Assembly: GCA_964387845.1 (NCBI GenBank)
Contig: CAYLXA010000001.1
Span: forward strand, 288,001 to 352,000
Direction of reading: 5' to 3'
Length of the DNA stretch: 64,000 nucleotides
From: an uncultured bacterium
GTDB taxonomy: Bacteria > Omnitrophota > Omnitrophia > Omnitrophales > Abzuiibacteriaceae
Of the stretch, positions 10,347-34,062 are shown piece after piece (the stretch's first letter is position 1; every line of letters begins with the position of its first letter). The position numbers were made by a program, and so were the translations under genes. The notes beneath the pieces were generated by a model. That model was not told the origin of the DNA. It saw nothing but the letters and a program-made list of their open reading frames with translations, and did not search any database.

Positions 10347-10504
10347 CCGTAATGGACAATTCGGCACTCTTGGATTTTACTTAAGCTTATTTTTCTCCCT
10401 TTTTCGCTATCTGAATTAGTTGTTCTTTAGGCTAGATGTATTTGGACCTGGTTGACCCACAAAATTCACGATGGACTTTGTAAATAAACTGACAGGAAGT
10501 CAGG

Positions 10505-10551: not shown

Positions 10552-10760
10552 CTTCATTTCACTGTTGGATGTTTCGAACAAGCATTAATTATGATTCCGT
10601 TACTTTCATCCGCGACTCTGCGATTTTGATCGCTCATCGCTTCCAATCGTTCATTGAATTTTTCATCAAAGAACTTTAACTGCCGAGTGAAGAGAATTTT
10701 ATGCGAGAAATAATTCAGTGTCAACAACAAAAATATTTTTTTTTAAAATCTCGCACAAAA

Positions 10761-15117: not shown

Positions 15118-15212
15118 TTCCCTCTCCCTTTGGGAGAGGGCTAGGGTGAGGGATTTCTATAAATCCCACCACCCTCATCCTAACCTTCTCCCTCTAAAGA
15201 GGGAGAAGGGAT
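15118..15212. repeat. nested palindromic element, family ii (CCCTCTCCC-N3-GGGAGAGGG / GGGTGAGGG), copy A
   Basis: ccctctccctttgggagagggctagggtgaggg ... ccaccctcatcc ... cttctccctctaaagagggagaagg. It overlaps the 3' end of the PabC-like gene, whose C terminus reads PSPSLEGEG. Confidence 0.55.
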
Positions 15213-15989: not shown

Positions 15990-16030
15990 GGGAAAAGTAT
16001 AAAGCAAAAAAACAGGGCTGACTATTCGGA

Positions 16031-19000
16031 TTATGCGGAGTAGAAAACCTGCATTTGCGCGCGGAACTTGCCGACCAAATATGCCGCGGCTGATAATACA
16101 TGGTCCACAAACGCTTGGTTCCAGATTATGACCTTGTCTGCGATTTTTTCAAGAAATGGAACGGCAACCGCGTCATCTGAAACACCGATAATGGCCATGG
16201 AAAGACCGAGATTTCTAAGTTCGGCGCGCGCCTTGTGGTAATCCTCAACGGGAACAATCCTATTTTTTGGATTTGCAATGGTTGCATTAATCTCGTCGAT
16301 GACGCGAAGCTCTGCGCGGTTTGTCACGATCACCATGTAAGAACCGTAAACATCCGAAAGATTCCGGCCAACCACAGCCAGACTTCCCTTTTCGCCGAAG
16401 AAAGCGTTACGCGTAAACACTTTCCCTTCCCGCATCTCTGATCGATTTTGAAGTGCTGTAACAATCTGATTGTCAAAACTGCGAGCGTTTGACACAATCC
16501 GGCGCATTTCGCTTCTCGCTACCGGTGCAATCTCAGTTTGCAAATCTCGGAATAACGGATTTTCTTTGACTTCAACTCTTCCTTTAGCAATGGTTTTTTC
16601 AGTCTTTGCAATGACGCGGAAATTAAAAACTGTTTCACCCGAAACTTCGGACTGCACCTTGGCCATAATTAGCGGGAGCCCCAAAACTTCGCTTTGCACC
16701 TTGTCTCCGATTTCAGTATTATTGAAAGCATCTGCTTGATTTAGAATCGACTTTTCAATCGCGCTTTGAAAATCGATTGGTTTGATTTTTTGAAGGCTTT
16801 CCGGCAGCAATTCCTTGTTAATTTCGCCTTCCAAATGAATACTGACATCATAACGGCTTCCAATTGTCTTTTGAGCGATTGTAAAATTCCGGTGTTCGCT
16901 TGTTAGCGATTTGACGCCCGCCTGCTCATAAAATTGAGCATCAATAACGGGAACCTCGCGGTCTGCGATCTCTTCTAAAATCCGGACCGCGCGATGAATA
17001 TATTTAGCGTGCCGGAAACTTCTTCGCTCATTTTCGCTCAGAGTCAAACTCCTGTTTTTCATCTGCAATTCCGAATACCAGCGCCGGAATAACTTCATAA
17101 TTTGAATCAGCGAAAGCGGCTGGTTAGCGCCGAGCGGATTGGATGAATTTTGTTCGTAAATTCTATTAATATCTGTCTCGCTTTGAGCTGTCCAGCTTGA
17201 TTTTTCCTGATTTAAAACCGCTTTAAGTACCGGAATATAAAAACCTGTGTCACGCTCAATCCACCAATTAAGCACATAAAGAGCGGCGAAGCGCGCAGAT
17301 TGGCGCAGCATATCCGGATTAAAGTTTTTAGGCGCTACTTCAATGAGCGGTTTCCATTCATCAACCGGAATAACCGGTTCAGCTAAGTATTGAAGCAGTG
17401 TTTCGAGGCCAACCTCATTTCCTTTTCCAAGCTCATCGGCTCTTGTCTTCCGGATTGTAAAATTAGGATGCGACAAATTTCTAAGAAGTTTTTGCACCGA
17501 ACGCAGTTCTGATTTTTGGCTGCCGGCATCAGGCCCAGGCATCGGCTCTGTCAATTTTTGGAAACGTTCGGCCAATTCGGTTTCTGAGATTTTAAACATT
17601 TCGTCAACAAACGCTTCGGAACCGCCAAGCTCCCCTCCGTCTTCTCCGAATAAACGGACTTCGACTAACTCATGAAACGCAACGGCAAATCTTTCGGCCG
17701 ATATCCTTTCTTCATCCGTTTTGAATTCAAACTGAAAAGCGAGACGCGTATCCTTAACCGCTTCAAGCGTCATCAAGGCCATCGGATTATCCGCTTCGAT
17801 CCATTCAGCACTCCCTTTGTTCAGATTTTTGATCTTAACAGAAACATTTTTTGCTAGGGCGGCTTGCGCCATTTCGACAATGAACATCGCTGGACTCGCA
17901 TGGACACCTTGCCGGTTCTTGACCGTAACATTGATCTCAATGCTGTTACTTTCCCCTTCCCGCAATTCCGACATGTTTCTATCAGTCGGCGTTACGGACT
18001 TTTTATATTCATTAATCTGATGATCGAGAAAAGCTTCGTAACTATCAATGGCCTGGCTTGTTTGCGCCAACCACTCTTCTTCTTCTTTCAATAATAGGCC
18101 ATGTTCTTCTTTCATTCCCTTCAAAGCAGACTTTGCTTTTCGAAGCTCTGGTAATATTCTGAGATAATAATCGTTCGCTTCCGCGGCTAGAGAATTGCCT
18201 CGATCCGAAACTGACAAAATAAAGCTGCTGAAACGATTCAACAAAACTTCCGTGCGGCTCAATAAAATCTTAATTCTGAGCTGCTGTTCATCCAAAGCGA
18301 TTCGCCTCGGTTTGATAAGAGAATAATAAAGGAGCGCTCCGACTCCTATGCCTATCGCGCCCGCTGAAATACCGATAACGGTATAATTTCGTAATTCAGA
18401 ACGATGTTTAGGCGGACGGGGAAAACTTTGAAAAGGCCCCCTGCGCGCAGCGCGGACAGCCTGAATTCTCGCCGTCACTTCTTCAATAGTATCTAAGTCA
18501 CCGGCTAATTCTGCGTTATGAAGCTCGACTTCCAATCTTGCCAAATCCGTCGAGTGATGCGATTGGTCTACAGCAAACGGAAGCTCGATCGGCTCCTCAT
18601 TTTCCAAATCATTGCGCAGTTCCGAACGGACACCGGATTTTTCGCGAGGCGGCTGTTCAGATTTCGGCGGAACCGGGATCCATCCTTCCCACCGGCGGTA
18701 AACATGCGTAGGCCGCGTCCCTACTTCATTGGAAATATTTTTACCGCGCACGCCATGAACCTGATGGGCTTCATCACGCCGTAAAACTTCGGCTCTTTGT
18801 GCACGAAAATAATCATCCGTAAAATGAGTGATTTCGCCGGTTTTTAAGCCCGCGCGGCGCCAGTCAATGTGCCCTTCGGGATGAACAACACGCATATCTT
18901 TCTTCAGTACCTGCAAAGCTCCGGAAAATGCGGCGTGATTAAACAAAATAACTGTTTTCCCGCGATACTGCTCGTTCATGCGTTTCCAAAAAGCGGCGGC

Positions 19001-22000
19001 GCGGATGATTAAATGGGCAAAACTTTCGCCATGCTCAGGTTTCGCCAAAACACTCCACTTTTGATAACTTCGCGCGGCCTTGAATTGTTCCCGGCCAAAC
19101 TGCGCCTTAATTTGCTCATTGGTGAGCCCTTCCCATTCGCCTTGAAAAATTTCTTTTGTATCGGGATCAATCATCACTTTCAGTTCAATTCCTAATTTTT
19201 CACGTACCAACCGGATAAATGGTTCTGCCGTATCCCGCACACGCCCAAGCGGATTAATGATCACCACAAACTGATCCGGATTTGCTGTGATTTGGTCTTT
19301 AAACTTTTCAAATAATTTTTCAGCGTCAGCTTGCGCTTGCACGCGCCCTTTTGGCGTCAACTGCGCGCCTTCGTTATCCATACCGCTTCCCTGAAACCTC
19401 TTTCTCCCTGTTCTTAGCCCTTCCGCAATGATGTGAGTTTCTCCGTGGCGGATAACGTAAAGATCCAGATCAAGCGCCGGTGGGAAATAAGGCTCTTTAT
19501 AAAAAAGCTGCCCGGTCGATTGATTGACCCAAAAACCCATTTGTTGCAATGTTTCGGAAACATTTTTTCGCAATTCCACCCTCGCCTTCATTAATAAATC
19601 CGGCTGTATTGCACTGGTCGGAACCACAAGTTTGCCGTTTTCCCAATAGACCAGCGCACTCAAAAACTGGAACATGACCGGATCATGTTTTCTCACAAAA
19701 TCAGGGTCAAGCCAGTAAAGAGACTGGGCTTCAAAGAAAAACTCTCGCGCAGAAACAATGCTGTATCGGCTCAAAAACTGCGTTTCAATTTCTTCTTGAG
19801 AATAATCAAGCACCTGCTTCTTTTTCCCAAATTGCCTTTCAAGTGCCTGCAGCCTAGTCTCATAAATCCGTTTTGCAATCTGATAAACTGCTGTTTTATC
19901 GTGTGGAATGTTCACAATAGAGAGTGGTAAATTTTTATTCGCAAAATGCTCTAAGCGCTCAAAGTTAATCGGCAGCGCATACTGATTATGCTCAACGAGC
20001 GTTTCCGCAAGTTCGTGAGTCAGGAGCCGTTCTAAATAAGTAAAGTCCTTATCCCTCACCTTCAAAAATTCATCGCTCACTGGCCCGTCATAGGAGATCG
20101 GATGATCGCCCGCATAAAGTGAAAGAAAGATCGATTTAACATTGGACAGCACAGGATGAAGGGAGTGATAGGTAACGCCTCCCAAATGATCTCCGTTGCG
20201 TCTTACGATAGAACGCGCAATAAATACTTGGGCATTGAGCATTTTAAAAAGCGGTGCAATTGCAATGCCGGCCCTATGGCTTTCAAGGAAATGATTGAGC
20301 TGGCCATATAACTTACGCGCTAATCTCCAGTCGGTTTCACTGTTTAATCCATGCAATACATCAGTCCGAATATGTGCAGAAGAGCCTTGTAGATAACCCA
20401 AAACAATTTGACGCAATTCCGCCCTTGCCCCCTTTGAAGAAACATTTTCATGATCCGCTGGGGCCGAGGGGCTTTCTTGTAGTTCTTGCAAAATTAATAT
20501 CACTTCGTCCGGAAGTCCTAATGCGCTTAAAGCATCCTTGGCGCTTTCGAGCTGATGAAAACTGAAATGATCCGCAAATCTTTCTGCGCGAGACTTATTT
20601 CCCAGCAACCCTGTCAAAAATGGGATAGCCAACTCACGAAAATGAATGCACCATGGCTCCGCTTGAAGAATCCGGTTGGTCAGATAAAGCAGTTTTTTAA
20701 GCTGTTTAAACGATAAATCGCTATCTTGAAGCGCGGCACGGATTGCGTCATGGCCTGCATCCAACAACATAGTCTTAGGGGCAGCACTTTCCGCTTCGGA
20801 ATTCCTGAGCTCGGAACGTATGGCTCTAGATTTAATAGCAACGCTGCCGAGATACACATTGCCGCTCTGGTGATAAAGAAGCGGGTTTTCGTGGCCATCC
20901 ATGCTGATAACGTCTCCATCCGCGATATCACGGCCGGCGATGAGCCAAAGATGCTTTTCCGGCTGGAACACCATGTCCGGAACGCCATAAACGGCCGAAA
21001 TGCCTTCTTTCTGCGCCAGCGTTTCCGCATGCACTGAAATGGTCTTCGCTAAAATATGAACCCCTTTTGGAATCCGGTTAATCATTTCGGGATTCACTCT
21101 GTCCAAGATCAAAATAACGCCGTCAACATCCGCTCGGGGATGAGAAACAAGTTCGCCCAAAAGCTTTTCCGCTGCTTCTATCGAATTAGCCGCCAAACCG
21201 CGAATCGCACCGCCGCTCACGCCATGGCCGCGCGCAATCGGCTGATTGTCAGTCGAGTCGGCAAATTCCGGATATTGATCCGTCACAAAATCATCATTGC
21301 TTTGGACAATCCATATCTTTCCGCGCTCAATCGTGAATTCAAACTGCTGGTTGTAACGGAAAATGTTCTTGAGCTTACGCGCGTACTCGAACACTTGTGC
21401 GTAAAGCTCCGGCTGCAATGCTTCAAATGTTTGTTCATCCGGCCGGATTCGCTCACCATTTCCGATTAAAATGTAATTTTGGCCGGCACGGCTCATCAAT
21501 TGATCGCCGATCGAGTGAAACCGAAATTTACCTTGGAGCACGTCATGGCCGTCCGGAAGTGTTCTCAAAACTGCGTGCCCCGCGCCTGAAATTTTCCCGT
21601 CATCAGTCGGCTTTAAATTTCCGAAAACGCCTTTCTGCAGAATAACGACCGTTCCCCACTCTTGCGAAATCTGATGCCGTGTACGATACGCGCGTGCCTC
21701 TTCGGAGTCCCACGATGCATAAACCGCTTCGACTGCCATCATGACCTGATCCATCATGTCGTTTGGAATTATTTTGCCGTGCCGCGCCACGATTGCTTTG
21801 CACTGTTCCACCACTGCCTTCATGCCGTCTGCCGACAAATCTTCCTTTTCTTTAACATTCAAAACCTGCTCAAATTCCGCCTCAGGAATACCGAGCACAT
21901 TGATCGAAAATGACCGGATAAATTCCGCGTAGGTGTCATACGCAAACCACGCATCGCCGCTTTTTTGGGCAAGCGCTTCGGCTTCCGCGTCGTTCATGCC

Positions 22001-25000: not shown

Positions 25001-28000
25001 TTTTGTATCGTCCGGCCAAAATCTGGCGCCATACTTCAGTGAGAATATTTTTACGCCCAGATCTGTGGATCTGTAACCAAACTTCCAATCATGAACGTCT
25101 TGATCCAGCATGACCGATAAGGCCCATAGCATCAAATTTCGATACGTGAAACCCGGATAAGACTGCGAGAATTTTCGTGTAGACGGCGGTATATCGGCCA
25201 AACGTTCTTCGGGCCATGCCGATACAACACTAATGAACCGCTTGACATAATCGGCCAGCAGCTCGTTGTCCGAGGGTTTCTTGATTTCTTTCCCGTCAAA
25301 TTCCTCAATATGAAGACCGGTCGGACGCAGATGTATGACTTGCGTCAAGCCCAATGTCCAGTAAGCGTAAAATAAATCCTCTAAACCACCCGCAAGCAGA
25401 TGATCCAGACGGCCTGCAAATTTTTCAAATTCGTCCAGGTCTTTGAAATAGGGATCGATTAACGTTGCCAAAAATTGGTTGAGGTTGCCGAATTTCTTGT
25501 CAAGGCCCCGGTTTTCCCATTCCCGGCGCAATTCGACGCCGAGCTCGCGTAATTCCCTATTCGAAAATCCTTCGGGCAATACCTTGCTCCAATAAATGCG
25601 CCTGTCCTCTGAGCCGCTTCTGGGCCAAAACCGATTGGAGTCGTGCGGGCTCAATAGAAACGTCAGAGCTTCAAGGATATCGCCTTCCGTCAGACTGTCA
25701 TAAATCTTATTCGGAGAGCCCGCTTGATCCATCAAATCGCGAATCACATCCATAACTTGATCGACTTTTGAACGTTGGGTGACCGCGGCAGTTTGCCTAA
25801 GTTCCGAACGGTTTTTCAGAATTTGCCGCCGTTCTTCGAGCGTAAAAAATTGTTTTTCGTAAGCTCTTTTTGCGGCTTCCCGGATTTTTCTATTAAACCG
25901 GTCTAAATCAGTTATTTCCTTCTTTAAAAAATCAAGCCACTGTTTTGGTTCAATGGTCATTTCCCCGAAAAATTCGTCGCTCAAAAGCATCAACAGCTGC
26001 ACAAATGCGACTTTGTACAAAGGATCTTCCTGATCCAAGGCAGCCCGCATCGCATCTGATACCGGAAGTACCGGATTCAGATAAGGGAACAGGATTTGAG
26101 CCGGATAGGACGACCGGATTAATTCATTCAATTTAGCTTCTACTTCAAAGTAAGCATGGGCCAACAACCCCTGCTGATCGCCTTCATACCCGCCCAGCGC
26201 ATGAGCCAGCAAACTTCCGGGACGCAGGATAGCTTTCATCACATTAATCCAATAGAGCGATGTTGAGTAATCGTTTTCTCCCTTATAAAATTCGTTTGCA
26301 AACACATAGGCATCGGAATGGCTAAGTTCCTCCTCTAAAACTCCGCTCCGGTATAATTGTGCGACATACCCATAATCGCCCAAACTATAAAAATGCATTT
26401 GAATCCAATCTCGTAAGTAAGCGACGGGTGATTGATCAAAATTGGGAAATTGATACTGGCCCGTTTCATATAACTTTTTCAAATTTTGGTAATAATCAAA
26501 ATTTTCTATCGAAGGAACGTCGGTGCCTTCAATAATGACAATATGCCTGTCTTTCGCAAATGCACTTAGGTAACTGTCGCTCTTTCCGTCTCTCGATTTG
26601 AGGCGAACGGTGTAAACCGGAACAAACCGGCCTGCCGCAGAGCGCTGAGATTCCCTTTTGATAATTTTACCGACCAAGAGTCCGCTGCCGTTCACTATGT
26701 CCACGATCAGGCCACGTGGAATTAAAATATCGTCCGCGATTTTTGTTCCTATTTTTCCGATATCATAAATAGAAATCAAATCTTTGTGGCCAAATGAAAA
26801 AGCGGCATCAAAATCCGGTGAAAGAGGCCTGAGAACCTGGTTGAATGTTTCAACGGCCTCAAGACGGTTTAAGTCATTTAGACTGGCTTTTTCGACTAGG
26901 TACTTTAGCTTCGGCCAATAGCTCACCCAAAACCATTCCACAACATCAAAGCTGGGGCTATCCGGATTTAGGAGCCTAAACTCTCTGATTAAGTTGAGAA
27001 TTTGATTCGCCTGGCTGGTGTTGAGCGTGATCTTTCCGCGCAAAGCTTTGATAATGCCTTGCGCATTTAAATTTTGAGTTTCCAAAAATTCTTTCAGAAC
27101 ATCTACGGTAAAAAAGCGTTTAATATTTTTTACGCTTAATTTCGAAATGATGAGAGCATGCAGCGTTTGAACCGGATCCGTATTTACTGCTTGTGCCGTC
27201 TGATTGCGCAATTCAGAGCGGAGTAGCTCAGACTGCGGGGCAGCGGTTTGACCTTGCAACGGGATTTCCCAGAAATTGCGGGCGTTGCGGGCAGAATCGA
27301 AGAATGCTCTGGCTTTCGCACGGTTGCCTTTGGTTAACTCGAATAATCCAAAAATAATTGCGTAAGCTCTTTCCGTAAAGCTACGCGACTTTTTTAGCAC
27401 AAAGTCACGGGCCAGCCACCGGTAACGGAATGCGTCAAAATGATACTGAAAACCGGCTTCCGGATCGTGAATCTTTTTAATTGTATTGCGCGAGGCTCCC
27501 TGAGAGTAGTGCTGATCTAAATAATCGCGGCCGTAGTTGGTAATCCCTGCATAGATCTTCTTAAAGCCCGAACGCCGCGCGACATCTTGAAGAATCTGAA
27601 TCGCTTCCGGCATCAGTTCATCGAAATATTTTGCACCGTCATTGTTAAACTCGAAACTGTTGACCGTTAGTACCGGATCTCCATTGTCTTCCGATGCAAT
27701 CATCCACATCTGTGCCCGATGCTGATAGGCATCGCCTGAACCCTTGTGATCGATGTCCGCCAGGATAATTCCGTCGTCACTCAGGAGAGAGGGCAAAATC
27801 CAGGAGACAAAATGCTGCAGAGAAATACAATTTCCGATGGCTTCACTTGAAGTGAGAAAATCTATCGCGCCTTTCAGGGTCTTTTTGTCGTGAATTCTTA
27901 TTCGAATTCCCTTTTCTTTATTTTCGTAAACCCTGCCCTTCTCAAATTCAGAAACATTGATGCCGATTGCCTGCATTTTTTTCTCAATGGCTGAAACATG

Positions 28001-31000
28001 GCCTGTTTTGCGAAGTCTTTCTGACAAATAATCACGCAATCTTTTGTAATACAAAATTCCGGGCGCAATATTGAGCCGCGTGCTGATCAAAAAAGTTCCT
28101 GGCGCGATAATTCCCATCAAAATAAAAAACAAGGCAGCATTTGAAATGAGAGGATAAATGGTAAAAACGCCGAACCCGACCAGAAACGCGAAAGCGGTCG
28201 GCGCCACCCAAGCATAAATGGGCCTTGGCGGCTTTCTAAGGCCTTTCAAAATGCGTGGATTCATCGTGACAATGTCGAGAGCATCTGCAATGCTGATCCC
28301 GAGTGCGCGCCGCACTTTGGCAATTTCGGAAATTTTCATGCGGCTCAGGCGCGTGGCTTTCATAAATTTCTGAACCGCCATGAGTTTGTCAAAAGCGTCT
28401 TTTTTAAGACTGTCCCGCACCGCTTTGTCTTCGGAAAGCCTGCGCATAGCTTCTTGATTTGAGGCTGACCAGACTACGGCAATAACTTCTTCCGTTTTTT
28501 TCCGCTGGTCAGGCGAAAGTTTATCCAAAAACTTAAGCACATTGACGAGATCGCCGTCTTTAACGGACACGTTGTACAGAATTTCTTCAAAAAAGTACCG
28601 CAAATTCCGGTTTGGACTTGGAAAATATTCGAGCAACTTTTCAAGTTTCGCGATTGCGCGCGGAGGATAGCTCATTTTCTGCGCAACGGGATTTTCATTA
28701 ATTTCAGCGAGAATGGTTTCGATAAATTTTGGATATGCGCGGAGCTCGGATCGCTGCTCATCGGTTTTTTTTGCGATTGCCCTCCTTTCAGACTTATGCT
28801 GAAACCACCACATTCCTCCAAAAAGAAGCAGAAGCGGCGGGATCAAGGAAGCATTGTCCGTAAGCCAGGCAACGGGCCCGGTCACAACAAGAACAAGCGA
28901 GGCTGTAATTGCCTTAAGAAAATATTGTTTCCGGAACTTAAACCACCACGTTTTATACTGAGTCGGAAAAATCTTAACGCGGTTCGATGGTTGAATTAAA
29001 TCCGTTACATAACCAATCACTTCACCTTTTGGGAAAGCATACTCCAAAGGCTCGACCGGATACCCATAAACGTCTAAATATTGTTTTTGGGAAGGATCGG
29101 CATATTCGATCGATACAAGCTCGGGCTGTTTGCCGGATTTCTTAACATAATCGACAAGCCTCTTAGGCCCTTGATTGAGCGGATAAGCAAAATAAAGAAC
29201 TGATTTAAATCCGCATGCCCGGGCATAGTTCTCGATGATTTTTTGAATTCCCTTCGCCTTTGCATCAAAAATTCGCCCCTCCACACCGTCCACAAATAAA
29301 ATCGGCTGTTCTTTTCCGTCTTGATCCTTATAAATCGCGGCGGCGATTCTGGCCCGTACCCGGCGGCCTTCGCGCGTACGGAAATCAATCGCTGAAATAC
29401 TTTTGTTGTGCAAATAATTAAACGGGCCCAGCGCACCTTTTGTTCTCCGGTTTAATTTGTCAAGCCACGTGTTGCCGCGAAGCGACGCCGAAGAAAAGAA
29501 ATCCTTTTGATTGGTTAAATCAAACCACGGATCGCGCCGCCAAATCCGGGCTTCTACAATTGAGTCCGGTAAATTTCCCCAATCGTCAATCTTGGAGATA
29601 CTTTTCTGAAGGTATTGATTGGCCTTCGCGGCATTGGGGTTTACATATTGGCCCAGCTCTTGCAGCAACTTTTTTCCTTCCTCGACAGGCAATTCACCTC
29701 TTTTATTCCTGGCCAATTCTTCTTTGTGCGCATTGAAAAATTGAGTGACCGACTTCTTACCCTCCTTTAAATTGGGCGTGTACTGTCCGGGCTTAAACTG
29801 GCGGTCTTCGGTTGAACCCAAAAAATCCCTGAGTATTTTCTGGATAAACTCGGGGATGGTTTGATTTTCCGCGTCTTCGAATTCCCCTGCCGGTACTTTT
29901 TCAATATTATCCCCGCGAATTTGATAATAGACTTTGTAATCCGGATTATCCCAATTTTCGTTGATGCCGACCGATTTGAGACGCTCCATGGTTTGAATCG
30001 CTGCCTCGGTCTGGTCAAACCATTGCCGGTAACTTCGCCGCTTAAGCATGGAGGCCAGATCCAACGCGGAAATTGTTTTCCACGAAAAAATGAACATTCG
30101 TTTCGCAAATACCGCCAAAATGTAAACCAAGGCTGTGAAACCTGACGCCACAAACAAGCTTTCAATCCATCCTGCGGGATCAGAATTGTTGATCATTTCC
30201 CTAATATTTAAGCTTGCTAAATTTCCATCCATCCAAAAAGAAATAGCGGAATAGAAAATTGTGAGCGCTGCGCGTTGAACCGAAGCATAGAAATATCCAA
30301 TAACGCCAGTGAAGGAAACCGCGAGAAGATGCAGCCACGGGTTCTGAATGAGCGCCGTACGGGCGTGCGCAATCCGTGCGCGTTCTAATTTTTCTTCGTT
30401 AATTTTGTTCAAGTCAATCTTTAAACTTTTAAACTTTTTCCACAAAAATTTCAGCTCCGGGAAACCGTCTTTCTCCATCCGCTCGTCGATTTCGGCAATG
30501 GTGAGATCTGAATTCTCACGCAGTTCACTGGCTGCCTTTGGATTTTTGCTTTTTCCGTTTCCGGAAAAAGCGTTGCGCGTCAGAACACCGATCGTTTTAA
30601 ACACCAGCGCGGTGTTATAAAGTGCCGACCGGTCCCGGATATCGTTTAACTCCAGCTCTATGTCATGCGTGTCCATGCCAAACTTTCCGGTTCCGATACC
30701 CCGCTTTAGAGCGCTTGAGCTGAGAAAACCCGGCTTGGTGTGATGTAAAACACTTTCGATATAATTTTGATCAACTTCCAAAGGTAAGCGCGGCCTTGGC
30801 CCAAACCATTGCATGTCACCGCGGACAATCGACAAGAGCTGCGGAAGCTCATCAAGCCCCGTTCTGCGCAAAAACCATTCGTAAGGCGTAATGCTTTCAT
30901 CTGAAATGTTGAAATCAAGTTTCATGGTTTTAATTTTTCGTATCACAATCGTCTTGCCCTGAAAACCGATTCGCTCTTGAATAAAAAACATGGGGCCGCT

Positions 31001-33958
31001 TGTGATAATTTTCCGGATAAAGGCAAGCAAATAAACCAGCGGAAGAGTTAAAACCCACAAAACGAGCGCTGTGATTCTCCCTGCCGCCTCGGACAGATCA
31101 GGTTTCTTTGCCGCGGGAAGCGATAAAGCATTGGTTTCCTTCAAGCGCAATTCCGAGCGCGCTTTATCGATGTCGTTCGATTGAGAAGCCGAAGTCGGTA
31201 TTTCTCCGGTTGGGTGATTGCTGCTTACCGCATTTGCTTTTCCTTTTGAATGCAAATAAAAGGTGCCGACGGCGGATGTTAAATGTCCCAATCCGGCCAG
31301 AAGCACAACCTCGTTTGAATCTTTTCTGGATCCAAGATACGCGGTTTCTGCCATAAAAGATCCTCTGTCTTTTGCTTTGTCGTTGGGATGTGTCAAATAA
31401 TCAGGGGCGAATAACTGGTGCGACTCGATAGATTTCAACCATTTGGTAAAAAGCAGAATGAGAGAAACCACAAGAAACCACGGTGCAAAAAATGCAGCTA
31501 TTAAACTATCCCGAAGCGAATCCCCATGATCAAATATTTCACTGCCAACCTGCAATTTGTAAAGCAGGCGAAAATTTCGCTCGTGAAAAAATGGGATGCC
31601 TTCTCTCGCTAAGAAATAAGATAACTCCCGTACTTTTTTCTTGTTTAGCAGCATAAATTCAGAACCATGCACAATGCCAATCACATGAAAAGTACGCCCG
31701 CCGATTTTGACCATCTTACCGGAAAAACCAAAGCGTTCCGCAATCGGCGAATCTTGAAATTGCGCCATGGTTTCAGAAGCCGCCTTTCGCCAAATTGGAG
31801 TAGCGAAGTCTGAAAATACTCGGCGGTGATAACCGATATTTTTGCCTAAAAGACCGGCTTTTTTAAATTTCTGAAACAATTCGATGGGTTTTGATGATTC
31901 AATCATCCAAGTTCCGATAGTCCTTTCTGAAATTTTTAATTCACCCGCTCGATCCCAAAATTGTTTCTCAGACGGGTAACGTAAAACATTGATCAATAGC
32001 GGGAGGATAAACTTTTGAACAAAATCAGCGTAGGTAAAATTGAAACTTAAGAGAACCACATTCGCCAAAAGCCACGTGATAAAAATACTAATGGGAAAGC
32101 CAAACCGTGAAAGACTTAGCTGCATAAGTGCCTGTTTAATGCTTGATAAAAAATGAGCTGCGAGTGGATAGGTTTTGGGGAATAGAAGCATTAAAATCAA
32201 GGATCCCGACATTGCGGCTATCCCGTAAAATAAAAATGGAATAGCTTTCATCCCGATTTTTAATAGATGCTTCCGCTTTGCATCCGGGCTCCCGTTCTTG
32301 AGTCTAGATTCAGCATGAATGACATCCCCGGTTACCCGCAATTCCGACCGAGGCGCGGTTGGCGACAAGTGCAATTCCGAGCGCGGCTCTGCGCTTGCGG
32401 CAAACTCGTCAGGAATGACCGGCGATTCCAATAAGATATCCGATACATAATCGGCAGCAGTGCGGCGAACAACCGGGTCGGAATCACCAGCAGCAATAGC
32501 CATAACGGAAACAGCGCGCCAGTCGTGGTGGCGCGTTTGGTACAAGTAATCAAGTAAATTCAGAAGTTTGATTTTAAATTTTTGGAGATGCGGGTTTGGG
32601 GTGCTTGATCCCGATTGAAGTTCCAGAGCTTCTGAAAATGTGGCAAACAAAATATCGGGCGATACTTCATACAAAGAAAATTTTGAGTCGTAAGCCAGCA
32701 AATGTTCAATTCGGTCGATGATTGCAAAATTTCCACTTTGATATGCATTATAGAAATTGATCATGATTTGGCCCGCAACAATTCGCTGAACTAATTTTGA
32801 AACTTCCCCGCCCGTTACTTTAAAATAATATTTTTTTCTGGCTTTGAGCCCATCCAATTCGAATAACTCCCGCAGATTTTCTTCCACTTCCCTCTTGATT
32901 CTTTCAAATTCTATCCTTTTTTCAGAAAGAACATCTTCGAGCGGTTTTTGAGCGGCTTCCAAATTTTCCGTGGCTGGTATTTTCAGCTTTGGTTCTTTTT
33001 GGCCGGGCTGAGTAGAAAACTGAGAACACCCGACCGAAGCTAGTCCGATTAAAGAGAACAACTGAATCAATTTCAATATTTTGAATGCGCGCAGCTCTGA
33101 GGATTGAGATATTTTTGTGTAAACTTGAAAACTGGAGGAGCTATCCGGATGGATCTTGACTGTAACGCGTGAAAAATCGGGAGATGAAAAATAAGGCATC
33201 AATTCATGCTCAACGCCATAGTTGACCAATTTTCCGCCGGCTTTGAGATTTCTTTTGATCGTACTGGCTAGCCGCGCACGATTAGCTGTGCCATAACTAT
33301 AATAATAGACAATATCAGCTTGCTGCAAAAGCGCGGTCCAGCGCGTGTCATTAAAATCTCCGCGCAAAAATTCTACTTGGCCTTTTTTGATAATCCCGCG
33401 CTCCTCGGCCACAGAAAGTAACCGGAGACTGTCTGCGTAGAGATCCGGATCATATTCGATGCCGGTGATTTTTAAATTCGGATAACGGTGAGCAAGCATC
33501 AATGCATAAGCGCCCTGGCCATGGCCCAAGTCCACCATGGTAACCGGCTGGTCATGCGGGATCGGAAATTTTTCGACCGTTGCATTTATCGAATCAAGCC
33601 GGGTCTGTAGGTGAACGCCTTTTTCCGTGCGCCGGAGCTGAGCTGAGCTAAAATCAACTCCGGAATTTCGGAACAAAAGGCCGAGCACTTCCCTTGGATC
33701 CCTGGCCAATTCGACTGCTCGCAATTCCGAGCGCGGCTGAGTGTTTAATTTAACTGTGCCGCGGGCGATGGTGGGTAAATCCAGATCCAGAATACCGCCA
33801 TGCTGATTGGCTAAGCGATGGACTCCGACGGTGGTGAAATTATTTTTGAAGGATTCCGCGATCACAGACGAATCGCCGTAAGCGATCGTGCTGGTAACTG
33901 AAAAGGTAAGGACAAGTGTCAGAGCAACACTTTTTAAAAGATATGAGTTTAACTTCAC
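16031..33958 (-). CDS. giant 5975-aa composite ORF, possibly a polyprotein: signal peptide, SAM-MTase, lipoprotein, tentatively TraB/GumN-like membrane module, PglC-type phosphoglycosyl transferase, several unknown membrane/soluble modules, PPDK-like dikinase, histidine phosphatase, HPr-like domain and HEAT-like module, separated by about 21 R-S-E-L-R motifs
   Basis: A single uninterrupted reading frame starts at ATG 33958 (MKLNSYLLKSVALTLVLTFSVTSTIAYG, signal-peptide-like) and ends at TAA 16031. Domain calls come from motifs read directly in the translation, listed under the sub-features below. Confidence 0.7.
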   Translation of the reverse strand: MKLNSYLLKSVALTLVLTFSVTSTIAYGDSSVIAESFKNNFTTVGVHRLANQHGGILDLDLPTIARGTVKLNTQPRSELRAVELARDPREVLGLLFRNSGVDFSSAQLRRTEKGVHLQTRLDSINATVEKFPIPHDQPVTMVDLGHGQGAYALMLAHRYPNLKITGIEYDPDLYADSLRLLSVAEERGIIKKGQVEFLRGDFNDTRWTALLQQADIVYYYSYGTANRARLASTIKRNLKAGGKLVNYGVEHELMPYFSSPDFSRVTVKIHPDSSSSFQVYTKISQSSELRAFKILKLIQLFSLIGLASVGCSQFSTQPGQKEPKLKIPATENLEAAQKPLEDVLSEKRIEFERIKREVEENLRELFELDGLKARKKYYFKVTGGEVSKLVQRIVAGQIMINFYNAYQSGNFAIIDRIEHLLAYDSKFSLYEVSPDILFATFSEALELQSGSSTPNPHLQKFKIKLLNLLDYLYQTRHHDWRAVSVMAIAAGDSDPVVRRTAADYVSDILLESPVIPDEFAASAEPRSELHLSPTAPRSELRVTGDVIHAESRLKNGSPDAKRKHLLKIGMKAIPFLFYGIAAMSGSLILMLLFPKTYPLAAHFLSSIKQALMQLSLSRFGFPISIFITWLLANVVLLSFNFTYADFVQKFILPLLINVLRYPSEKQFWDRAGELKISERTIGTWMIESSKPIELFQKFKKAGLLGKNIGYHRRVFSDFATPIWRKAASETMAQFQDSPIAERFGFSGKMVKIGGRTFHVIGIVHGSEFMLLNKKKVRELSYFLAREGIPFFHERNFRLLYKLQVGSEIFDHGDSLRDSLIAAFFAPWFLVVSLILLFTKWLKSIESHQLFAPDYLTHPNDKAKDRGSFMAETAYLGSRKDSNEVVLLAGLGHLTSAVGTFYLHSKGKANAVSSNHPTGEIPTSASQSNDIDKARSELRLKETNALSLPAAKKPDLSEAAGRITALVLWVLTLPLVYLLAFIRKIITSGPMFFIQERIGFQGKTIVIRKIKTMKLDFNISDESITPYEWFLRRTGLDELPQLLSIVRGDMQWFGPRPRLPLEVDQNYIESVLHHTKPGFLSSSALKRGIGTGKFGMDTHDIELELNDIRDRSALYNTALVFKTIGVLTRNAFSGNGKSKNPKAASELRENSDLTIAEIDERMEKDGFPELKFLWKKFKSLKIDLNKINEEKLERARIAHARTALIQNPWLHLLAVSFTGVIGYFYASVQRAALTIFYSAISFWMDGNLASLNIREMINNSDPAGWIESLFVASGFTALVYILAVFAKRMFIFSWKTISALDLASMLKRRSYRQWFDQTEAAIQTMERLKSVGINENWDNPDYKVYYQIRGDNIEKVPAGEFEDAENQTIPEFIQKILRDFLGSTEDRQFKPGQYTPNLKEGKKSVTQFFNAHKEELARNKRGELPVEEGKKLLQELGQYVNPNAAKANQYLQKSISKIDDWGNLPDSIVEARIWRRDPWFDLTNQKDFFSSASLRGNTWLDKLNRRTKGALGPFNYLHNKSISAIDFRTREGRRVRARIAAAIYKDQDGKEQPILFVDGVEGRIFDAKAKGIQKIIENYARACGFKSVLYFAYPLNQGPKRLVDYVKKSGKQPELVSIEYADPSQKQYLDVYGYPVEPLEYAFPKGEVIGYVTDLIQPSNRVKIFPTQYKTWWFKFRKQYFLKAITASLVLVVTGPVAWLTDNASLIPPLLLLFGGMWWFQHKSERRAIAKKTDEQRSELRAYPKFIETILAEINENPVAQKMSYPPRAIAKLEKLLEYFPSPNRNLRYFFEEILYNVSVKDGDLVNVLKFLDKLSPDQRKKTEEVIAVVWSASNQEAMRRLSEDKAVRDSLKKDAFDKLMAVQKFMKATRLSRMKISEIAKVRRALGISIADALDIVTMNPRILKGLRKPPRPIYAWVAPTAFAFLVGFGVFTIYPLISNAALFFILMGIIAPGTFLISTRLNIAPGILYYKRLRDYLSERLRKTGHVSAIEKKMQAIGINVSEFEKGRVYENKEKGIRIRIHDKKTLKGAIDFLTSSEAIGNCISLQHFVSWILPSLLSDDGIILADIDHKGSGDAYQHRAQMWMIASEDNGDPVLTVNSFEFNNDGAKYFDELMPEAIQILQDVARRSGFKKIYAGITNYGRDYLDQHYSQGASRNTIKKIHDPEAGFQYHFDAFRYRWLARDFVLKKSRSFTERAYAIIFGLFELTKGNRAKARAFFDSARNARNFWEIPLQGQTAAPQSELLRSELRNQTAQAVNTDPVQTLHALIISKLSVKNIKRFFTVDVLKEFLETQNLNAQGIIKALRGKITLNTSQANQILNLIREFRLLNPDSPSFDVVEWFWVSYWPKLKYLVEKASLNDLNRLEAVETFNQVLRPLSPDFDAAFSFGHKDLISIYDIGKIGTKIADDILIPRGLIVDIVNGSGLLVGKIIKRESQRSAAGRFVPVYTVRLKSRDGKSDSYLSAFAKDRHIVIIEGTDVPSIENFDYYQNLKKLYETGQYQFPNFDQSPVAYLRDWIQMHFYSLGDYGYVAQLYRSGVLEEELSHSDAYVFANEFYKGENDYSTSLYWINVMKAILRPGSLLAHALGGYEGDQQGLLAHAYFEVEAKLNELIRSSYPAQILFPYLNPVLPVSDAMRAALDQEDPLYKVAFVQLLMLLSDEFFGEMTIEPKQWLDFLKKEITDLDRFNRKIREAAKRAYEKQFFTLEERRQILKNRSELRQTAAVTQRSKVDQVMDVIRDLMDQAGSPNKIYDSLTEGDILEALTFLLSPHDSNRFWPRSGSEDRRIYWSKVLPEGFSNRELRELGVELRREWENRGLDKKFGNLNQFLATLIDPYFKDLDEFEKFAGRLDHLLAGGLEDLFYAYWTLGLTQVIHLRPTGLHIEEFDGKEIKKPSDNELLADYVKRFISVVSAWPEERLADIPPSTRKFSQSYPGFTYRNLMLWALSVMLDQDVHDWKFGYRSTDLGVKIFSLKYGARFWPDDTKRRTGKQSMTEYLSRMLTDVPELDQNGVETGRKISNEKIEKLVAEVLSRNESDWVRLGFRSPWDVSEVQASMLIRTIGDRSKNPLRDAVLTLPLPNLQDPELNVGINTSAPVYLKYAPLPRHLIFPTQAAFIHRRKEAVRRRLFFGEPFRTLFPNLKTLTAQKRSELRSDGRTNPMSYKEFEKALRDYQTLMKLSFGRGGKHLSFEQNQAVGARKEAIIDLLKKNSKEHLQNLIREFILKADLPLDKKQSYLWYVSSAMSPDRYRMTDAFFKEHLIPIYLSKTNSPEENRIFLELAAAYFNEHYIKADIHHDLEATFRQASPDDLGKLIHLLLHLRTIGHEFFRELISILLSVSPADPLAAAFVAAQGLVRDIPSEGRKRIEYPQMSLYLLHQPNARAAYFYLMKVIEAERKGGVSTDNSQDRIISYSRRLDNNASYPGEFGRGWFSHFRDGIHRNLNRSDFENTRRVLAYWLTLDESILKESNWTLLRDDMTKDFNPATLQTYSKLLNRFVKALAAKGKISKSDPEAFLDEILDIPEREVVAIYEEANRDEDVSEIDYERVQLMTQLYLAFADHFGTRVATIVPFLKGETEDLRDGGYLKKKMTAITRFMREDYDRLLMLIDSDDHAAIFSAIVKVQNDLKEFLLSGEENQKKVLGQAEKSIGRDGEDSADEDADDIDQEWNDMHEEGDYLYDLRTLVEMSEKLSILASEKIAHVQEKIEKINSVDDLRRELPNLIALGRFIQASGLGGVDFDQLMVELDSGSIKASQLYDLVHTLEAEVHKITRQLNNTMRAAMQYSLDEVGYHDLAKLWREHTSLFKIKTKTEDDQTYQIYDFPPEGKERLEAAVIDELIRNSGATAFDRALMKFDAVLASALSQGQDEAIREDAGAERPDDFEQHLYRFGENETDERPELLSLWSKKGLNLIRMTHERIPVPPGVILSAKLVTKPDIFRSDEFRQKIAAEIERLKRYSEYPDLKLILYARSGSAFMLPGLLATVSNVGMNDAEAEALAQKSGDAWFAYDTYAEFIRSFSINVLGIPEAEFEQVLNVKEKEDLSADGMKAVVEQCKAIVARHGKIIPNDMMDQVMMAVEAVYASWDSEEARAYRTRHQISQEWGTVVILQKGVFGNLKPTDDGKISGAGHAVLRTLPDGHDVLQGKFRFHSIGDQLMSRAGQNYILIGNGERIRPDEQTFEALQPELYAQVFEYARKLKNIFRYNQQFEFTIERGKIWIVQSNDDFVTDQYPEFADSTDNQPIARGHGVSGGAIRGLAANSIEAAEKLLGELVSHPRADVDGVILILDRVNPEMINRIPKGVHILAKTISVHAETLAQKEGISAVYGVPDMVFQPEKHLWLIAGRDIADGDVISMDGHENPLLYHQSGNVYLGSVAIKSRAIRSELRNSEAESAAPKTMLLDAGHDAIRAALQDSDLSFKQLKKLLYLTNRILQAEPWCIHFRELAIPFLTGLLGNKSRAERFADHFSFHQLESAKDALSALGLPDEVILILQELQESPSAPADHENVSSKGARAELRQIVLGYLQGSSAHIRTDVLHGLNSETDWRLARKLYGQLNHFLESHRAGIAIAPLFKMLNAQVFIARSIVRRNGDHLGGVTYHSLHPVLSNVKSIFLSLYAGDHPISYDGPVSDEFLKVRDKDFTYLERLLTHELAETLVEHNQYALPINFERLEHFANKNLPLSIVNIPHDKTAVYQIAKRIYETRLQALERQFGKKKQVLDYSQEEIETQFLSRYSIVSAREFFFEAQSLYWLDPDFVRKHDPVMFQFLSALVYWENGKLVVPTSAIQPDLLMKARVELRKNVSETLQQMGFWVNQSTGQLFYKEPYFPPALDLDLYVIRHGETHIIAEGLRTGRKRFQGSGMDNEGAQLTPKGRVQAQADAEKLFEKFKDQITANPDQFVVIINPLGRVRDTAEPFIRLVREKLGIELKVMIDPDTKEIFQGEWEGLTNEQIKAQFGREQFKAARSYQKWSVLAKPEHGESFAHLIIRAAAFWKRMNEQYRGKTVILFNHAAFSGALQVLKKDMRVVHPEGHIDWRRAGLKTGEITHFTDDYFRAQRAEVLRRDEAHQVHGVRGKNISNEVGTRPTHVYRRWEGWIPVPPKSEQPPREKSGVRSELRNDLENEEPIELPFAVDQSHHSTDLARLEVELHNAELAGDLDTIEEVTARIQAVRAARRGPFQSFPRPPKHRSELRNYTVIGISAGAIGIGVGALLYYSLIKPRRIALDEQQLRIKILLSRTEVLLNRFSSFILSVSDRGNSLAAEANDYYLRILPELRKAKSALKGMKEEHGLLLKEEEEWLAQTSQAIDSYEAFLDHQINEYKKSVTPTDRNMSELREGESNSIEINVTVKNRQGVHASPAMFIVEMAQAALAKNVSVKIKNLNKGSAEWIEADNPMALMTLEAVKDTRLAFQFEFKTDEERISAERFAVAFHELVEVRLFGEDGGELGGSEAFVDEMFKISETELAERFQKLTEPMPGPDAGSQKSELRSVQKLLRNLSHPNFTIRKTRADELGKGNEVGLETLLQYLAEPVIPVDEWKPLIEVAPKNFNPDMLRQSARFAALYVLNWWIERDTGFYIPVLKAVLNQEKSSWTAQSETDINRIYEQNSSNPLGANQPLSLIQIMKLFRRWYSELQMKNRSLTLSENERRSFRHAKYIHRAVRILEEIADREVPVIDAQFYEQAGVKSLTSEHRNFTIAQKTIGSRYDVSIHLEGEINKELLPESLQKIKPIDFQSAIEKSILNQADAFNNTEIGDKVQSEVLGLPLIMAKVQSEVSGETVFNFRVIAKTEKTIAKGRVEVKENPLFRDLQTEIAPVARSEMRRIVSNARSFDNQIVTALQNRSEMREGKVFTRNAFFGEKGSLAVVGRNLSDVYGSYMVIVTNRAELRVIDEINATIANPKNRIVPVEDYHKARAELRNLGLSMAIIGVSDDAVAVPFLEKIADKVIIWNQAFVDHVLSAAAYLVGKFRAQMQVFYSA
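17701..17950 (-). other. HPr-like phosphocarrier domain
   Basis: IEINVTVKNRQGVHASPAMFIVEMAQ resembles the HPr active site GLHTRPA (the His-15 region). NPMALMTLEAVKDTRLAFQFE resembles the HPr Ser-46 region. Bounded by MSELR and KSELR. Confidence 0.5.
18622..19573 (-). other. histidine phosphatase (phosphoglycerate-mutase-like, branch 1) module
   Basis: LYVIRHGETHIIAEG (the RHG catalytic motif), verified on the DNA at about 19440-19470. Bounded by KARVELR and VRSELR. Confidence 0.6.
20810..22274 (-). other. pyruvate-phosphate-dikinase / PEP-synthase-like ATP-grasp nucleotide-binding domain plus phosphohistidine swivel domain; no PEP-binding TIM barrel found
   Basis: KKGLNLIRMTHERIPVPPGVILSAK and YARSGSAFMLPGLLATVSNVGMND match the PPDK_N motifs GGKGANL...PVPPGF and VRSSAxxEDMPGMMDTVLNLGLND. 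KTISVHAETLAQKEGISAVYG matches the PEP-utilizer mobile-domain phosphohistidine motif. GTNDL was not found. Confidence 0.65.
30526..31150 (-). other. PglC/WbaP-type polyprenyl-phosphate phosphoglycosyl transferase (Bac_transf) module, aa ~937-1144
   Basis: N-terminal re-entrant helix ITALVLWVLTLPLVYLLAFIRK and the signature LRRTGLDELPQLLSIVRGDMQWFGPRPRLP. The roughly 200-aa size equals a free-standing PglC. Flanked by ARSELR and AASELR. Confidence 0.75.
31162..32340 (-). other. polytopic membrane module with a TraB/GumN-like motif (tentative), aa ~540-932 of the giant ORF
   Basis: GGRTFHVIGIVHGSEF resembles the TraB/GumN/Tiki G-T-x-H motif. Several TM segments. Bounded by RSELR on both sides. 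Confidence 0.3.
33103..33721 (-). other. class I SAM-dependent methyltransferase module of the giant ORF (aa ~80-285)
   Basis: VDLGHGQGAYALMLAHRYPNLKITGIEYDP (motif I plus an acidic residue at the end of beta2) and ADIVYYY. Bounded by PRSELR upstream and SSELR downstream. Confidence 0.6.
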
Positions 33959-34062
33959 AGTTTGAGCGAGCTGCCTTTCAAAATCGGGAATGGATAGATA
34001 ATATCACAGATAAACTGATTTTCAAGTATAAGAGGGTTTTAATATAAAATAAGAAGATATAT

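Follow-up and report, generated by a model that had tools for sequence, protein, structure and literature searches.

How a bacterial chromosome can encode, in one reading frame, a long series of enzymes and membrane proteins that are normally made separately, and whether the cell ends up with one chain or with many proteins, is the question raised by a giant open reading frame (ORF) in the 64-kb stretch of DNA from an uncultured Omnitrophota bacterium analysed here (the window). The ORF occupies positions 16031..33958 on the minus strand, and is an uninterrupted frame (translation table 11) of 5,975 codons plus stop with a GTG start. An earlier note on this DNA recognised the chain of modules, and overlooked what we regard as the decisive feature, a five-residue peptide, RSELR, at the module junctions. 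This peptide probably turns an odd fusion protein into a polyprotein with a cleavage code. Our preferred interpretation, to which we give a probability of roughly 0.6 on the strength of sequence comparisons, is that the ORF is a polyprotein precursor that would be cut right after a lineage-specific motif.

The giant ORF is real and no assembly artefact. A contig that Logan assembled separately (run SRR15237813) agrees with the window at 100% identity and with 0 gaps over 21,563 bp. It includes the 3,024 codons at the 3' end of the ORF within the locus fetched, and on it 3,627 amino acids (aa) are called. On the metagenome contig of a relative, L002, a single frame is open across all 21,851 bp, and relatives at 54–57% identity likewise keep the frame open. 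Another giant, P0003 (7,365 aa), is on record in two sources, NCBI and JGI/IMG. In the annotation, a near-identical copy of P0003 is divided into P0006 and P0007. We rejected a natural break at a junction as the reason for this split: the pieces are 100% identical to P0003 and the break lies off-junction, which points to an annotation or assembly break. As the earlier description has it, enzymes and membrane proteins that normally stand alone are chained in one continuous frame. The G+C content of the ORF matches that of the flanking DNA. The sequence that best resembles a sigma-70 promoter (TTGAAA-16-TATTAT, with an extended −10 TG) is at 33998..34025 on the minus strand, ~40 nt upstream of the start. 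Inside the ORF, promoter-like sites (25 found, 23.9 expected) and terminator-like sites (23 found, 24.8 expected) occur at chance frequency, and no ATG with a Shine-Dalgarno sequence was found downstream of its junctions. Internal promoters or translation starts as a source of separate products were therefore rejected, there being nothing beyond chance.

The peptide R-[S/A/V]-E-[L/M]-R and its close variants (xSELR, RAELR, RVELR, RSEMR and RSELH) occur 21 times in the ORF, as compared with about 0.1 expected from protein shuffles for this loose motif; for RSELR itself, 10 copies are observed and 0.01 expected. No other real gene of the window contains the motif. Codons vary between copies (TCG/TCC/TCT, GAA/GAG, TTG/CTC/CTT/CTG/TTA and CGC/CGA/AGG), indicating that selection acts on the peptide and not on the DNA; a DNA-level repeat was rejected for the same reason. 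Every copy sits between recognisable units and none within a Pfam domain, as is also the case in a related giant, P0130. The 12 residues on each side are enriched in P, T, N, S and Q, while W and C do not occur among them, a composition expected of linkers. Cutting at the motif yields 22 pieces (numbered M1 to M22 from the N-terminus, with junctions J1 to J21), the sizes of which reproduce the modules delineated earlier, including the run of 588, 506, 465 and 427 aa followed by one of 1,227 aa.

Among 5.8 billion proteins, matches to the ORF are limited to a handful. Except for the ORF's own entry, these are all giants of 3,395–7,365 aa with heterogeneous enzymes, encoded in metagenome-assembled genomes (MAGs) of Candidatus Omnitrophota and Elusimicrobiota. 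The closest relative, L001, comes from a groundwater MAG contig of Candidatus Omnitrophota and is 54–56% identical. It begins with Met at the matching position of a similar signal peptide and continues with two short junction-bounded pieces and then homologues of M7 and M8, M2–M6 being absent. All four of its junctions read RAELR. Junctions read R[SA]EVR at 10 sites in L002, RSELR at 12 in P0004, RSE[MV]R in P0002, and [G/A]xSLG at 15 in P0003. The giants other than this ORF share an N-terminal domain of ~500 aa (the N-domain). In a set of 1.84 billion proteins its profile matches 9,572 cluster representatives, 6,239 of them at E<=1e-30; in the 150 best hits listed, the domain is always N-terminal and the median protein length is ~2,000 aa. 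In a motif survey of 153 family members, two classes of junction emerged, each in 14 proteins: class A, R-[SAV]-E-[LVMI]-R (126 observed, 7.2 expected), and class B, [GAS]-[ASQR]-S-L-G (143 observed, 11.1 expected). The two are mutually exclusive and align position by position, with S/A at position 2, Leu at position 4 and an acidic stretch thereafter. Motif bearers are concentrated among the longest members (17 of the 28 proteins of at least 4,000 aa), and no further motif class was found in other long members by a search whose positive controls gave p = 1e-9 to 1e-24. The N-domain, with invariant H, Q, E, R and GGxH, is present in 29 of 30 motif-bearing giants; in this ORF neither hhalign nor hmmsearch detected it, and it is absent from L001 too. 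Nearly all complete giants, this ORF included, also have in common a C-terminal tail of ~60 aa ending [S/A]-A, a likeness judged by eye, with no profile statistics, between ..IGVSDD..IIWNQAFVDHV..FYSA in the ORF and ..IGDD..W.VG..F..[SA]A in 14 other giants. The ORF has the family's junction code and tail as well as several of its cargo modules, and lacks the N-domain.

The cargo between junctions is highly variable. When 274 junction-delimited modules from 30 giants were clustered, only the N-domain proved near-universal. Junction-bounded cargo common to the ORF and other members consists of the methyltransferase, the PglC-type transferase, the module resembling pyruvate-phosphate dikinase (PPDK), M7/M8, M10 and, weakly, M12. 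Homologues of the methyltransferase module occupy different positions in the ORF, P0004 and P0031, with a junction at the matching offset in each; those of the PPDK-like module occur in the ORF, P0002 and P0021, and the P0002 and P0021 copies end at RSEVR junctions. The PglC module begins 8–9 aa after RSELR here and after AASLG in P0003. Since homologous modules in non-collinear giants keep their junction offset, and the PglC module can follow either class of motif, the motif belongs to the host protein rather than to the module.

In one organism, two of these modules are encoded by separate genes. L004, a 562-kb contig, carries a 556-aa gene that matches M7 from its first residues (aa 1150–1687, 34.5% identity, E 1e-89) and ends in two stop codons (...RRCP*QRTA*), followed by an M8 homologue (E 3e-98). 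Neither homologue contains the junction motif. The boundary at which translation stops and restarts corresponds exactly to J7 (RSELR in the ORF, aa 1736–1740, 28739..28753, minus strand; RAELR in L001). The comparison proposed when the ORF was first noticed, whether homologues are split into separate genes elsewhere, thus gives a positive answer for M7 and M8, with stops where J7 stands. The free-standing M8 homologue (L004 5489–7086) is itself split, in that its N-terminal part shares a frame with the upstream gene and its transmembrane (TM) plus GNAT part (a called gene of 361 aa) has another; this could be either a frameshift or a genuine two-gene arrangement.

Several modules begin, immediately after a junction, as a free protein would. 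In P0021, a CsrA-like module starts RSEVR|MLVLSRK..., at the natural start of CsrA (compare MLILTRR in E. coli). More generally, Met occupies position +1 after 10 of 144 class A motifs, compared with a background of 1.8% (p 3e-4), and no other offset is enriched. Only two copies of the twin-arginine translocation (Tat) consensus RRxF[LIVM]K are present across all class B giants, each right after a junction (AASLG|MDRRDFIKLAGA... and AASLG|MDRRTFVKTCMA...); both modules start with Met and run into a hydrophobic region (AASLG|MDRRDFIKLAGAAAGLALAAK and AASLG|MDRRTFVKTCMAGLGALAAGAG). Tat signals are established to act at a free N-terminus, on proteins that fold in the cytoplasm. In the ORF itself, a signal-like segment that ends in Cys opens M3 at +0, and a TM anchor opens M16 at +1. 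These features, together with the lack of ATG-plus-Shine-Dalgarno starts downstream of junctions, argue that the modules are captured whole genes which still need their own N-termini. That need, in turn, makes the bond right after the fifth motif residue the likely scissile bond, with Arg or Gly at P1 and Leu at P2. The CsrA-like module of P0021 (aa 3912–4201) is 290 aa long and contains CsrA-like sequence twice, with an insertion, and then ~180 unrelated aa.

How might such a precursor work? One mRNA and one GTG start would give a 5,975-aa chain, a concatenation of complete, formerly independent genes. Its cargo would include a methyltransferase dependent on S-adenosylmethionine (SAM), a PglC-type phosphoglycosyl transferase, a membrane-anchored GNAT-fold acyltransferase with a probable diverged copy, a PPDK-like enzyme of the ATP-grasp/phospho-His kind, a histidine phosphatase and an HPr-like carrier, besides several membrane proteins and orphans. 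Between neighbouring units stands R-[S/A/V]-E-[L/M]-R, set in a short P/T/N/S/Q-rich linker. A site-specific endopeptidase would recognise the junction peptide and cut, most likely directly after its fifth residue (in this ORF, P2 = Leu and P1 = Arg). Some 17 proteins of at least 60 aa and a few short spacer peptides would be released, each product having its own N-terminus and being sortable independently to the cytoplasm, the membrane or export. Proteolysis, the scissile bond and the protease, which is presumably encoded elsewhere in the genome, are parts of this scheme that we infer. The cargo of relatives includes small or oligomeric cytosolic proteins (CsrA, PEPCK and GlpX), and it is hard to picture these working inside a membrane-tethered chain of several thousand residues.

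A number of points weigh against the polyprotein interpretation. The evidence for cleavage is all comparative. The Sec-type signal at the N-terminus precedes enzymes of cytoplasmic type, a topology that the model does not fully explain, and the retained Met residues and Tat signals could be non-functional relics of recent gene capture. Pfam showed no peptidase family in the ORF, in 11 class A giants or among the neighbouring genes of the window, and the giants have no HExxH motif in common. One candidate for the protease is the N-domain. Its fold is of the Tiki/EreA/ChaN/TraB hydrolase type, and its nearest neighbours track the motif class (A–A in 11 of 14, B–B in 11 of 14, A–B never). TIKI enzymes are proteases, and the N-domain of the wider family shares with the Tiki/TraB/EreA/ChaN group an invariant His, Glu, Arg and G-G-x-His, although the similarity is sub-threshold (PF04187, E 0.007–0.065) and a large helical insert sets it apart. 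Neither this ORF nor L001 has the N-domain, many long proteins have it without the junction motif, and it follows a signal peptide, so that it may lie outside the cytoplasm, whereas the Tat modules imply cytoplasmic cleavage. For these three reasons it is doubtful as the junction protease, and we regard it as a weak candidate only. Other candidates were rejected. A shared HExxH metalloprotease module was not found; a universal cargo module acting as built-in protease is disfavoured in that only the N-domain is near-universal; and M8, considered as a Cys/His peptidase (C39- or papain-like), has a GNAT fold and a candidate His that is not conserved, as well as free-standing homologues in a genome whose copies lack junction motifs. 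No protease gene lies beside the giant in this window or beside P0003.

The main rival explanation is that the protein is never cut and works as an intact, membrane-tethered string of beads, with RSELR as a conserved linker element of non-proteolytic function, for example a site where a partner or chaperone docks, a hinge, or a signal for co-translational folding or insertion. We consider this unlikely, yet a serious contender. Uncut multi-enzyme fusions are known in eukaryotes, and lend it some weight: fungal AROM, animal CAD and fatty acid synthase, like the ORF, place several enzymes in one frame. Unlike the ORF, they have few modules, all of one pathway, function uncut, and lack a conserved junction peptide or internal export signals. 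The failure to find a protease in the ORF, in class A relatives or among neighbours also fits an uncut protein, as do the many giants that have the family N-domain and no junction motif. Published topology predictions read such giants as membrane-anchored by a signal peptide and TM segments (10.64898/2026.06.07.730766). A passive linker, however, fails to explain the strict conservation of five residues at more than 100 sites combined with coordinated switches between lineages, the Tat signals and the CsrA Met1 right after junctions, or the stop codons of L004 at the equivalent position. Modification of the motif Ser can be ruled out as the purpose of the peptide, as all four sites of L001 have Ala in place of Ser.

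It is also conceivable, but improbable in our estimation, that the chain is an exported array of effectors, secreted in the manner of MARTX toxins from a possibly predatory or episymbiotic cell by way of the N-terminal signal or the C-terminal tail, and cut at the junctions outside or in the prey, where the freed enzymes would act. MARTX toxins are likewise giant bacterial proteins with a variable, shuffled array of unrelated modules, their effector modules being released by site-specific cleavage in the linkers between them. MARTX autoprocessing is Leu-specific, and Leu at position 4 of both motif classes recalls it, though as a lead only. The N-terminal signal peptide, the conserved and uncleaved-looking C-terminal tail, and the extracytoplasmic-type Tiki fold of the relatives' N-domain would suit export, and giant Omnitrophota proteins have been linked to predation (10.1101/2023.11.21.568195). 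Against this, Pfam and NCBIfam detect no RTX repeats, C80 cysteine protease domain or other toxin domains in the ORF, and the junction is a strict five-residue peptide rather than a loose Leu-X site. Many modules, including membrane proteins, carry TM, Tat or lipoprotein-like signals suited to the membrane of the producer, and the cargo has a housekeeping character (PEPCK, GlpX, CsrA, HPr and other core-metabolism enzymes). Moreover, the M7 and M8 homologues of L004 are ordinary chromosomal genes, and the giant gene itself sits among genes of core metabolism.

Separation without any protease, by 2A-like co-translational bond skipping or by self-cleavage of the junction peptide, would account for the absence of a recognisable protease; we nevertheless think it very improbable. 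The junctions show no similarity to 2A (D-x-E-x-NPGP), and we know of no such mechanism on bacterial ribosomes. There is little common chemistry between RSELR and GASLG; the Ser can be dispensed with (RAELR), which speaks against self-cleavage by N-to-O acyl shift; and the flanks are unstructured and unrelated, leaving no folded autoprocessing domain. Finally, mis-assembly, or a pseudogenised operon whose stops were lost by chance, might be suspected in a MAG-derived sequence with a relative (P0003) whose near-copy is annotated in two pieces, but is effectively refuted by the agreement of a second assembler over 21.6 kb, a stop-free run of 17.9 kb that is beyond chance in a genome of 45–49% G+C, intact catalytic motifs, the open frame of diverged relatives, and dozens of independent giants of the same architecture.

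The ORF contains five different Pfam families and one GNAT fold, each once and none dominating by copy number, and its catalytic signatures (GLDELPQ/GPRP, RHGE, GVHASPA and VDLGHGQG) are intact on direct reading. All five enzyme or carrier identities proposed earlier (methyltransferase, PglC-type transferase, PPDK-like enzyme, histidine phosphatase and HPr-like domain) are upheld by Pfam and NCBIfam, in the order given. The hydrophobic segments, an N-terminal signal-like one and about 12 more, also agree with the earlier description, as does the hydrophobic start of M3. Excluded with equal justification were a polyketide synthase or nonribosomal peptide synthetase (Pfam and NCBIfam find no KS/AT/ACP or C/A/T domains) and a repetitive adhesin (there is no substantial internal repetition). 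The remaining segments have no Pfam match at E<=5, which leaves unsupported the proposals of a TraB/GumN-like motif in M5 and a HEAT-like module near the C-terminus (M18). The modules had further been described as unrelated to each other; this does not hold for all of them, M7 being probably a diverged copy of M8, with a likeness visible in a MAFFT alignment and only marginal by BLASTP (E 0.04).

The modules and junctions follow one another, all on the minus strand, as described here. M1 (aa 1–75, 33734..33958) is signal-peptide-like (hydrophobic aa 7–25, AYG|D) with a short peptide, and L001 has the same layout. J1 (RSELR, aa 76–80, 33719..33733), also present at the matching edge of the methyltransferase modules of P0004 and P0031, leads into M2 (aa 81–285, 33104..33718), a class I SAM methyltransferase (PF13649/PF08241; Methyltransf_25 at aa 142–245) with homologues elsewhere in those two giants. 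J2 (SSELR, aa 286–290, 33089..33103) precedes M3 (aa 291–525, 32384..33088), which has a signal-like hydrophobic stretch ending ...LASVGC and no significant Pfam match. A duplicated junction follows (aa 526–541, 32336..32383), in which J3 (RSELH) and J4 (RSELR) enclose M4, a six-residue spacer, LSPTAP. M5 (aa 542–933, 31160..32335) is an orphan module with three TM-like segments. As a TraB/GumN protein or a diverged N-domain it was rejected: there is a by-eye H...E...GxxH resemblance only, and Pfam, hhalign and homologue searches were empty. J5 (RSELR, aa 934–938, 31145..31159) is followed by M6 (aa 939–1142, 30533..31144), the PglC-type phosphoglycosyl transferase (NCBIfam; PF02397, Bac_transf, aa 962–1126, E 2e-27), with GLDELPQ and GPRP present, and J6 (ASELR, aa 1143–1147, 30518..30532) by M7 (aa 1148–1735, 28754..30517), which is membrane-anchored. 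At the place of J6, L001 has RAELR.

Beyond J7, M8 (aa 1741–2246, 27221..28738) has two TM segments and a C-terminal domain with a GNAT fold (aa 1992–2236, window 27251–27985), the profile of which matches short homologues. In L002, one junction-bounded module (aa 3338–3958) joins an N-terminal part like M7 (36% identity) to a TM/GNAT part like M8 (56% identity), which suggests recombination between paralogous modules. J8 (RSELR, aa 2247–2251, 27206..27220; RAELR in L001) leads to M9 (aa 2252–2716, 25811..27205), and J9 (RSELR, aa 2717–2721, 25796..25810) to M10 (aa 2722–3148, 24515..25795); neither module has a Pfam match, and M10 has a homologue within a junction-bounded module of P0130. After J10 (RSELR, aa 3149–3153, 24500..24514), M11 (aa 3154–4380, 20819..24499) opens with ~730 aa that have no assignment and closes with a PPDK-like ATP-grasp and swivel-His region (aa ~3883–4380). 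This region is supported by PF01326 (PPDK_N, the N-terminal half of pyruvate-phosphate dikinase, ATP-grasp plus swivel, aa ~3883–4221) and the N-terminal half of TIGR01828; no phosphoenolpyruvate (PEP)/pyruvate TIM-barrel match was found in M11. J11 (RSELR, aa 4381–4385, 20804..20818) precedes the small M12 (aa 4386–4511, 20426..20803), which has no Pfam match and matches weakly a sequence directly after an L002 junction (33% identity over 69 aa, E 2e-4). J12 (RAELR, aa 4512–4516, 20411..20425) precedes M13 (aa 4517–4792, 19583..20410), also without a Pfam match, in which HELAE is present and HExxH is not.

J13 (RVELR, aa 4793–4797, 19568..19582) introduces M14 (aa 4798–5110, 18629..19567), the histidine phosphatase (PF00300, His_Phos_1, aa 4833–5015, E 4e-20), with its RHGE. 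J14 (RSELR, aa 5111–5115, 18614..18628) is followed by M15 (aa 5116–5185, 18404..18613), a 70-aa acidic/helical piece, and J15 (RSELR, aa 5186–5190, 18389..18403) by M16 (aa 5191–5328, 17975..18388), in which the TM anchor is succeeded by a helical region. Next come J16 (MSELR, aa 5329–5333, 17960..17974) and M17 (aa 5334–5481, 17516..17959), the HPr-like phosphocarrier (PF00381, PTS-HPr, aa 5341–5415, E 9e-8) with GVHASPA, then J17 (KSELR, aa 5482–5486, 17501..17515) and M18 (aa 5487–5814, 16517..17500), the supposed HEAT-like module. The segment aa 5815–5915 (16214..16516) is a cluster of closely spaced junctions with short spacer peptides between them: J18 (RSEMR), M19 (19 aa), J19 (RSEMR), M20 (37 aa), J20 (RAELR), M21 (25 aa) and J21 (RAELR). 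Tandem-duplicated junctions enclosing spacers of 6–55 aa occur at these two places in the window, in P0155 (aa 1421–1456, 2696–2756, 3367–3387 and 4086–4132) and in P0122 (aa 690–708 and 1589–1607). One spacer recurs nearly verbatim within P0122 (SAFGNADTPLGTG / SAFGNADTSFGTG), and P0155 has two copies of a ~35-aa spacer, SET[YR][AV]SDTA[EG]HS[KE]TGRF..FAVQGSQEPA. Such spacers could be linker duplications or released small peptides. The chain closes with M22 (aa 5916–5975, 16034..16213), the family-wide tail. The [S/A]-A ending is seen here and in P0002–P0004, P0013, P0021, P0031, P0053, P0088, P0091, P0106, P0107, P0130 and P0155; a C-terminal Ala-Ala resembles ssrA-type degrons and the signals of C-terminal-processing proteases, and the length of the tail resembles that of type I secretion signals.

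The neighbourhood of the ORF is ordinary chromosome, with ribonucleotide reductase, PurH, tricarboxylic acid (TCA) cycle and PEP carboxylase genes nearby. The ORF lies directly between genes for a PabC-like class IV aminotransferase (15180–16007, minus) and a PabB-like chorismate-binding enzyme (34085–35578, minus). Because pabB and pabC commonly neighbour each other or form a fusion, a pabBC unit may have been the insertion site of the giant gene. L001 has a different context, after a ParB-like gene. An ORF6N-domain gene adjoining a HEPN AbiU2-like gene (39378–40739, minus) looks like a small defence or toxin-antitoxin-like pair within the housekeeping region. The sole convincing plus-strand gene of at least 150 aa in the window encodes myo-inositol-1-phosphate synthase (37988–39097); all other convincing genes are on the minus strand. 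A gap of ~520 bp (10239–10760) lies upstream of a class II (B12-dependent) ribonucleotide reductase gene carrying a TSCPD domain. An Rfam scan of the window gave no family at threshold, cobalamin riboswitches included, and a tRNA scan of the window found nothing. The dense block at 41082–54938 (minus) encodes agmatinase/arginase, pyruvoyl arginine decarboxylase, a circularly permuted ATP-grasp protein, sucCD, sdhABC-like genes, malate dehydrogenase, a fatty-acid desaturase and PEP carboxylase, and shows that the organism has a fairly complete TCA and anaplerotic set. Genes for a GT2-like glycosyltransferase (2093–3901) and a PEGA-domain protein (3783–5270), both minus, overlap by 119 nt as listed; the upstream start in this overlap is probably over-extended, and the Logan annotation of the GT2-like gene has 558 aa rather than 602 aa.

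Giant genes of Omnitrophota were described in a 2023 preprint by West-Roberts et al., who proposed possible cleavage of the products and stated that information on cleavage points was absent (10.1101/2023.11.21.568195). In a 2026 preprint on proteins of at least 10,000 aa, Nielsen & Lui set apart "multi-enzyme metabolic clusters" as a class; their text uses none of the terms polyprotein, cleavage, linker and motif (10.64898/2026.06.07.730766). The view that no described family has the architecture of the ORF does not survive this second report: it is a smaller member of a recently described kind. Like those giants, the ORF is one long frame tiled by different free-standing enzyme domains (methyltransferase and GNAT among them), has a signal peptide and TM segments, has its nearest relative in a Candidatus Omnitrophota MAG, and belongs to a group for which cleavage into several products had been suggested. 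It differs in falling under the 10,000-aa cut-off, a survey threshold and not a biological criterion, and in lacking C39 or S8 peptidase, SecA and dockerin domains. A recurring junction peptide is mentioned in neither preprint, and searches of the literature for bacterial polyproteins, for Omnitrophota with polyprotein, and for "RSELR" returned nothing relevant. To judge from the literature searched, the junction code, its two classes, the evidence for module shuffling and the split-gene equivalence all appear to be new.

The closest analogy for a cleaved chain is provided by the polyproteins of picorna-, flavi-, corona- and potyviruses. In both cases one ORF encodes many units of unrelated function, membrane proteins included, with a short conserved peptide at each junction, a site sequence that is lineage-specific, and some variant sites which might be cut differently. 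In contrast to the viral examples, the ORF is a cellular chromosomal gene among housekeeping genes, its cargo consists of metabolic and envelope enzymes, no protease module is recognised in the chain, and processing is deduced from sequence.

These results make the explicit open question of whether Omnitrophota giants act as one chain or as many products a testable one. There are now exact candidate cleavage sites, 21 of them here and hundreds in the family as a whole; the neo-N-termini they predict can be looked for in existing metaproteomes, giants can be split computationally for structure prediction, and the protease may be traceable through its co-variation with motif class. If cleavage is confirmed, cellular organisms would be using a multi-site polyprotein strategy so far associated with viruses, a modular mechanism of gene capture, from gene to cassette, would be revealed, and a new orthogonal pair of protease and site would be available for synthetic "fuse-and-cleave" expression. 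With odds that we put only slightly better than even, virus-style polyproteins may be a routine means by which Omnitrophota and allied uncultivated bacteria express cellular enzymes, regulators and membrane proteins, whole genes being captured into giant ORFs and their products released by a dedicated endopeptidase that reads a lineage-specific code of RSELR or GASLG type. For bacteria, this would constitute a third route to co-expression, besides operons and stable fusions.

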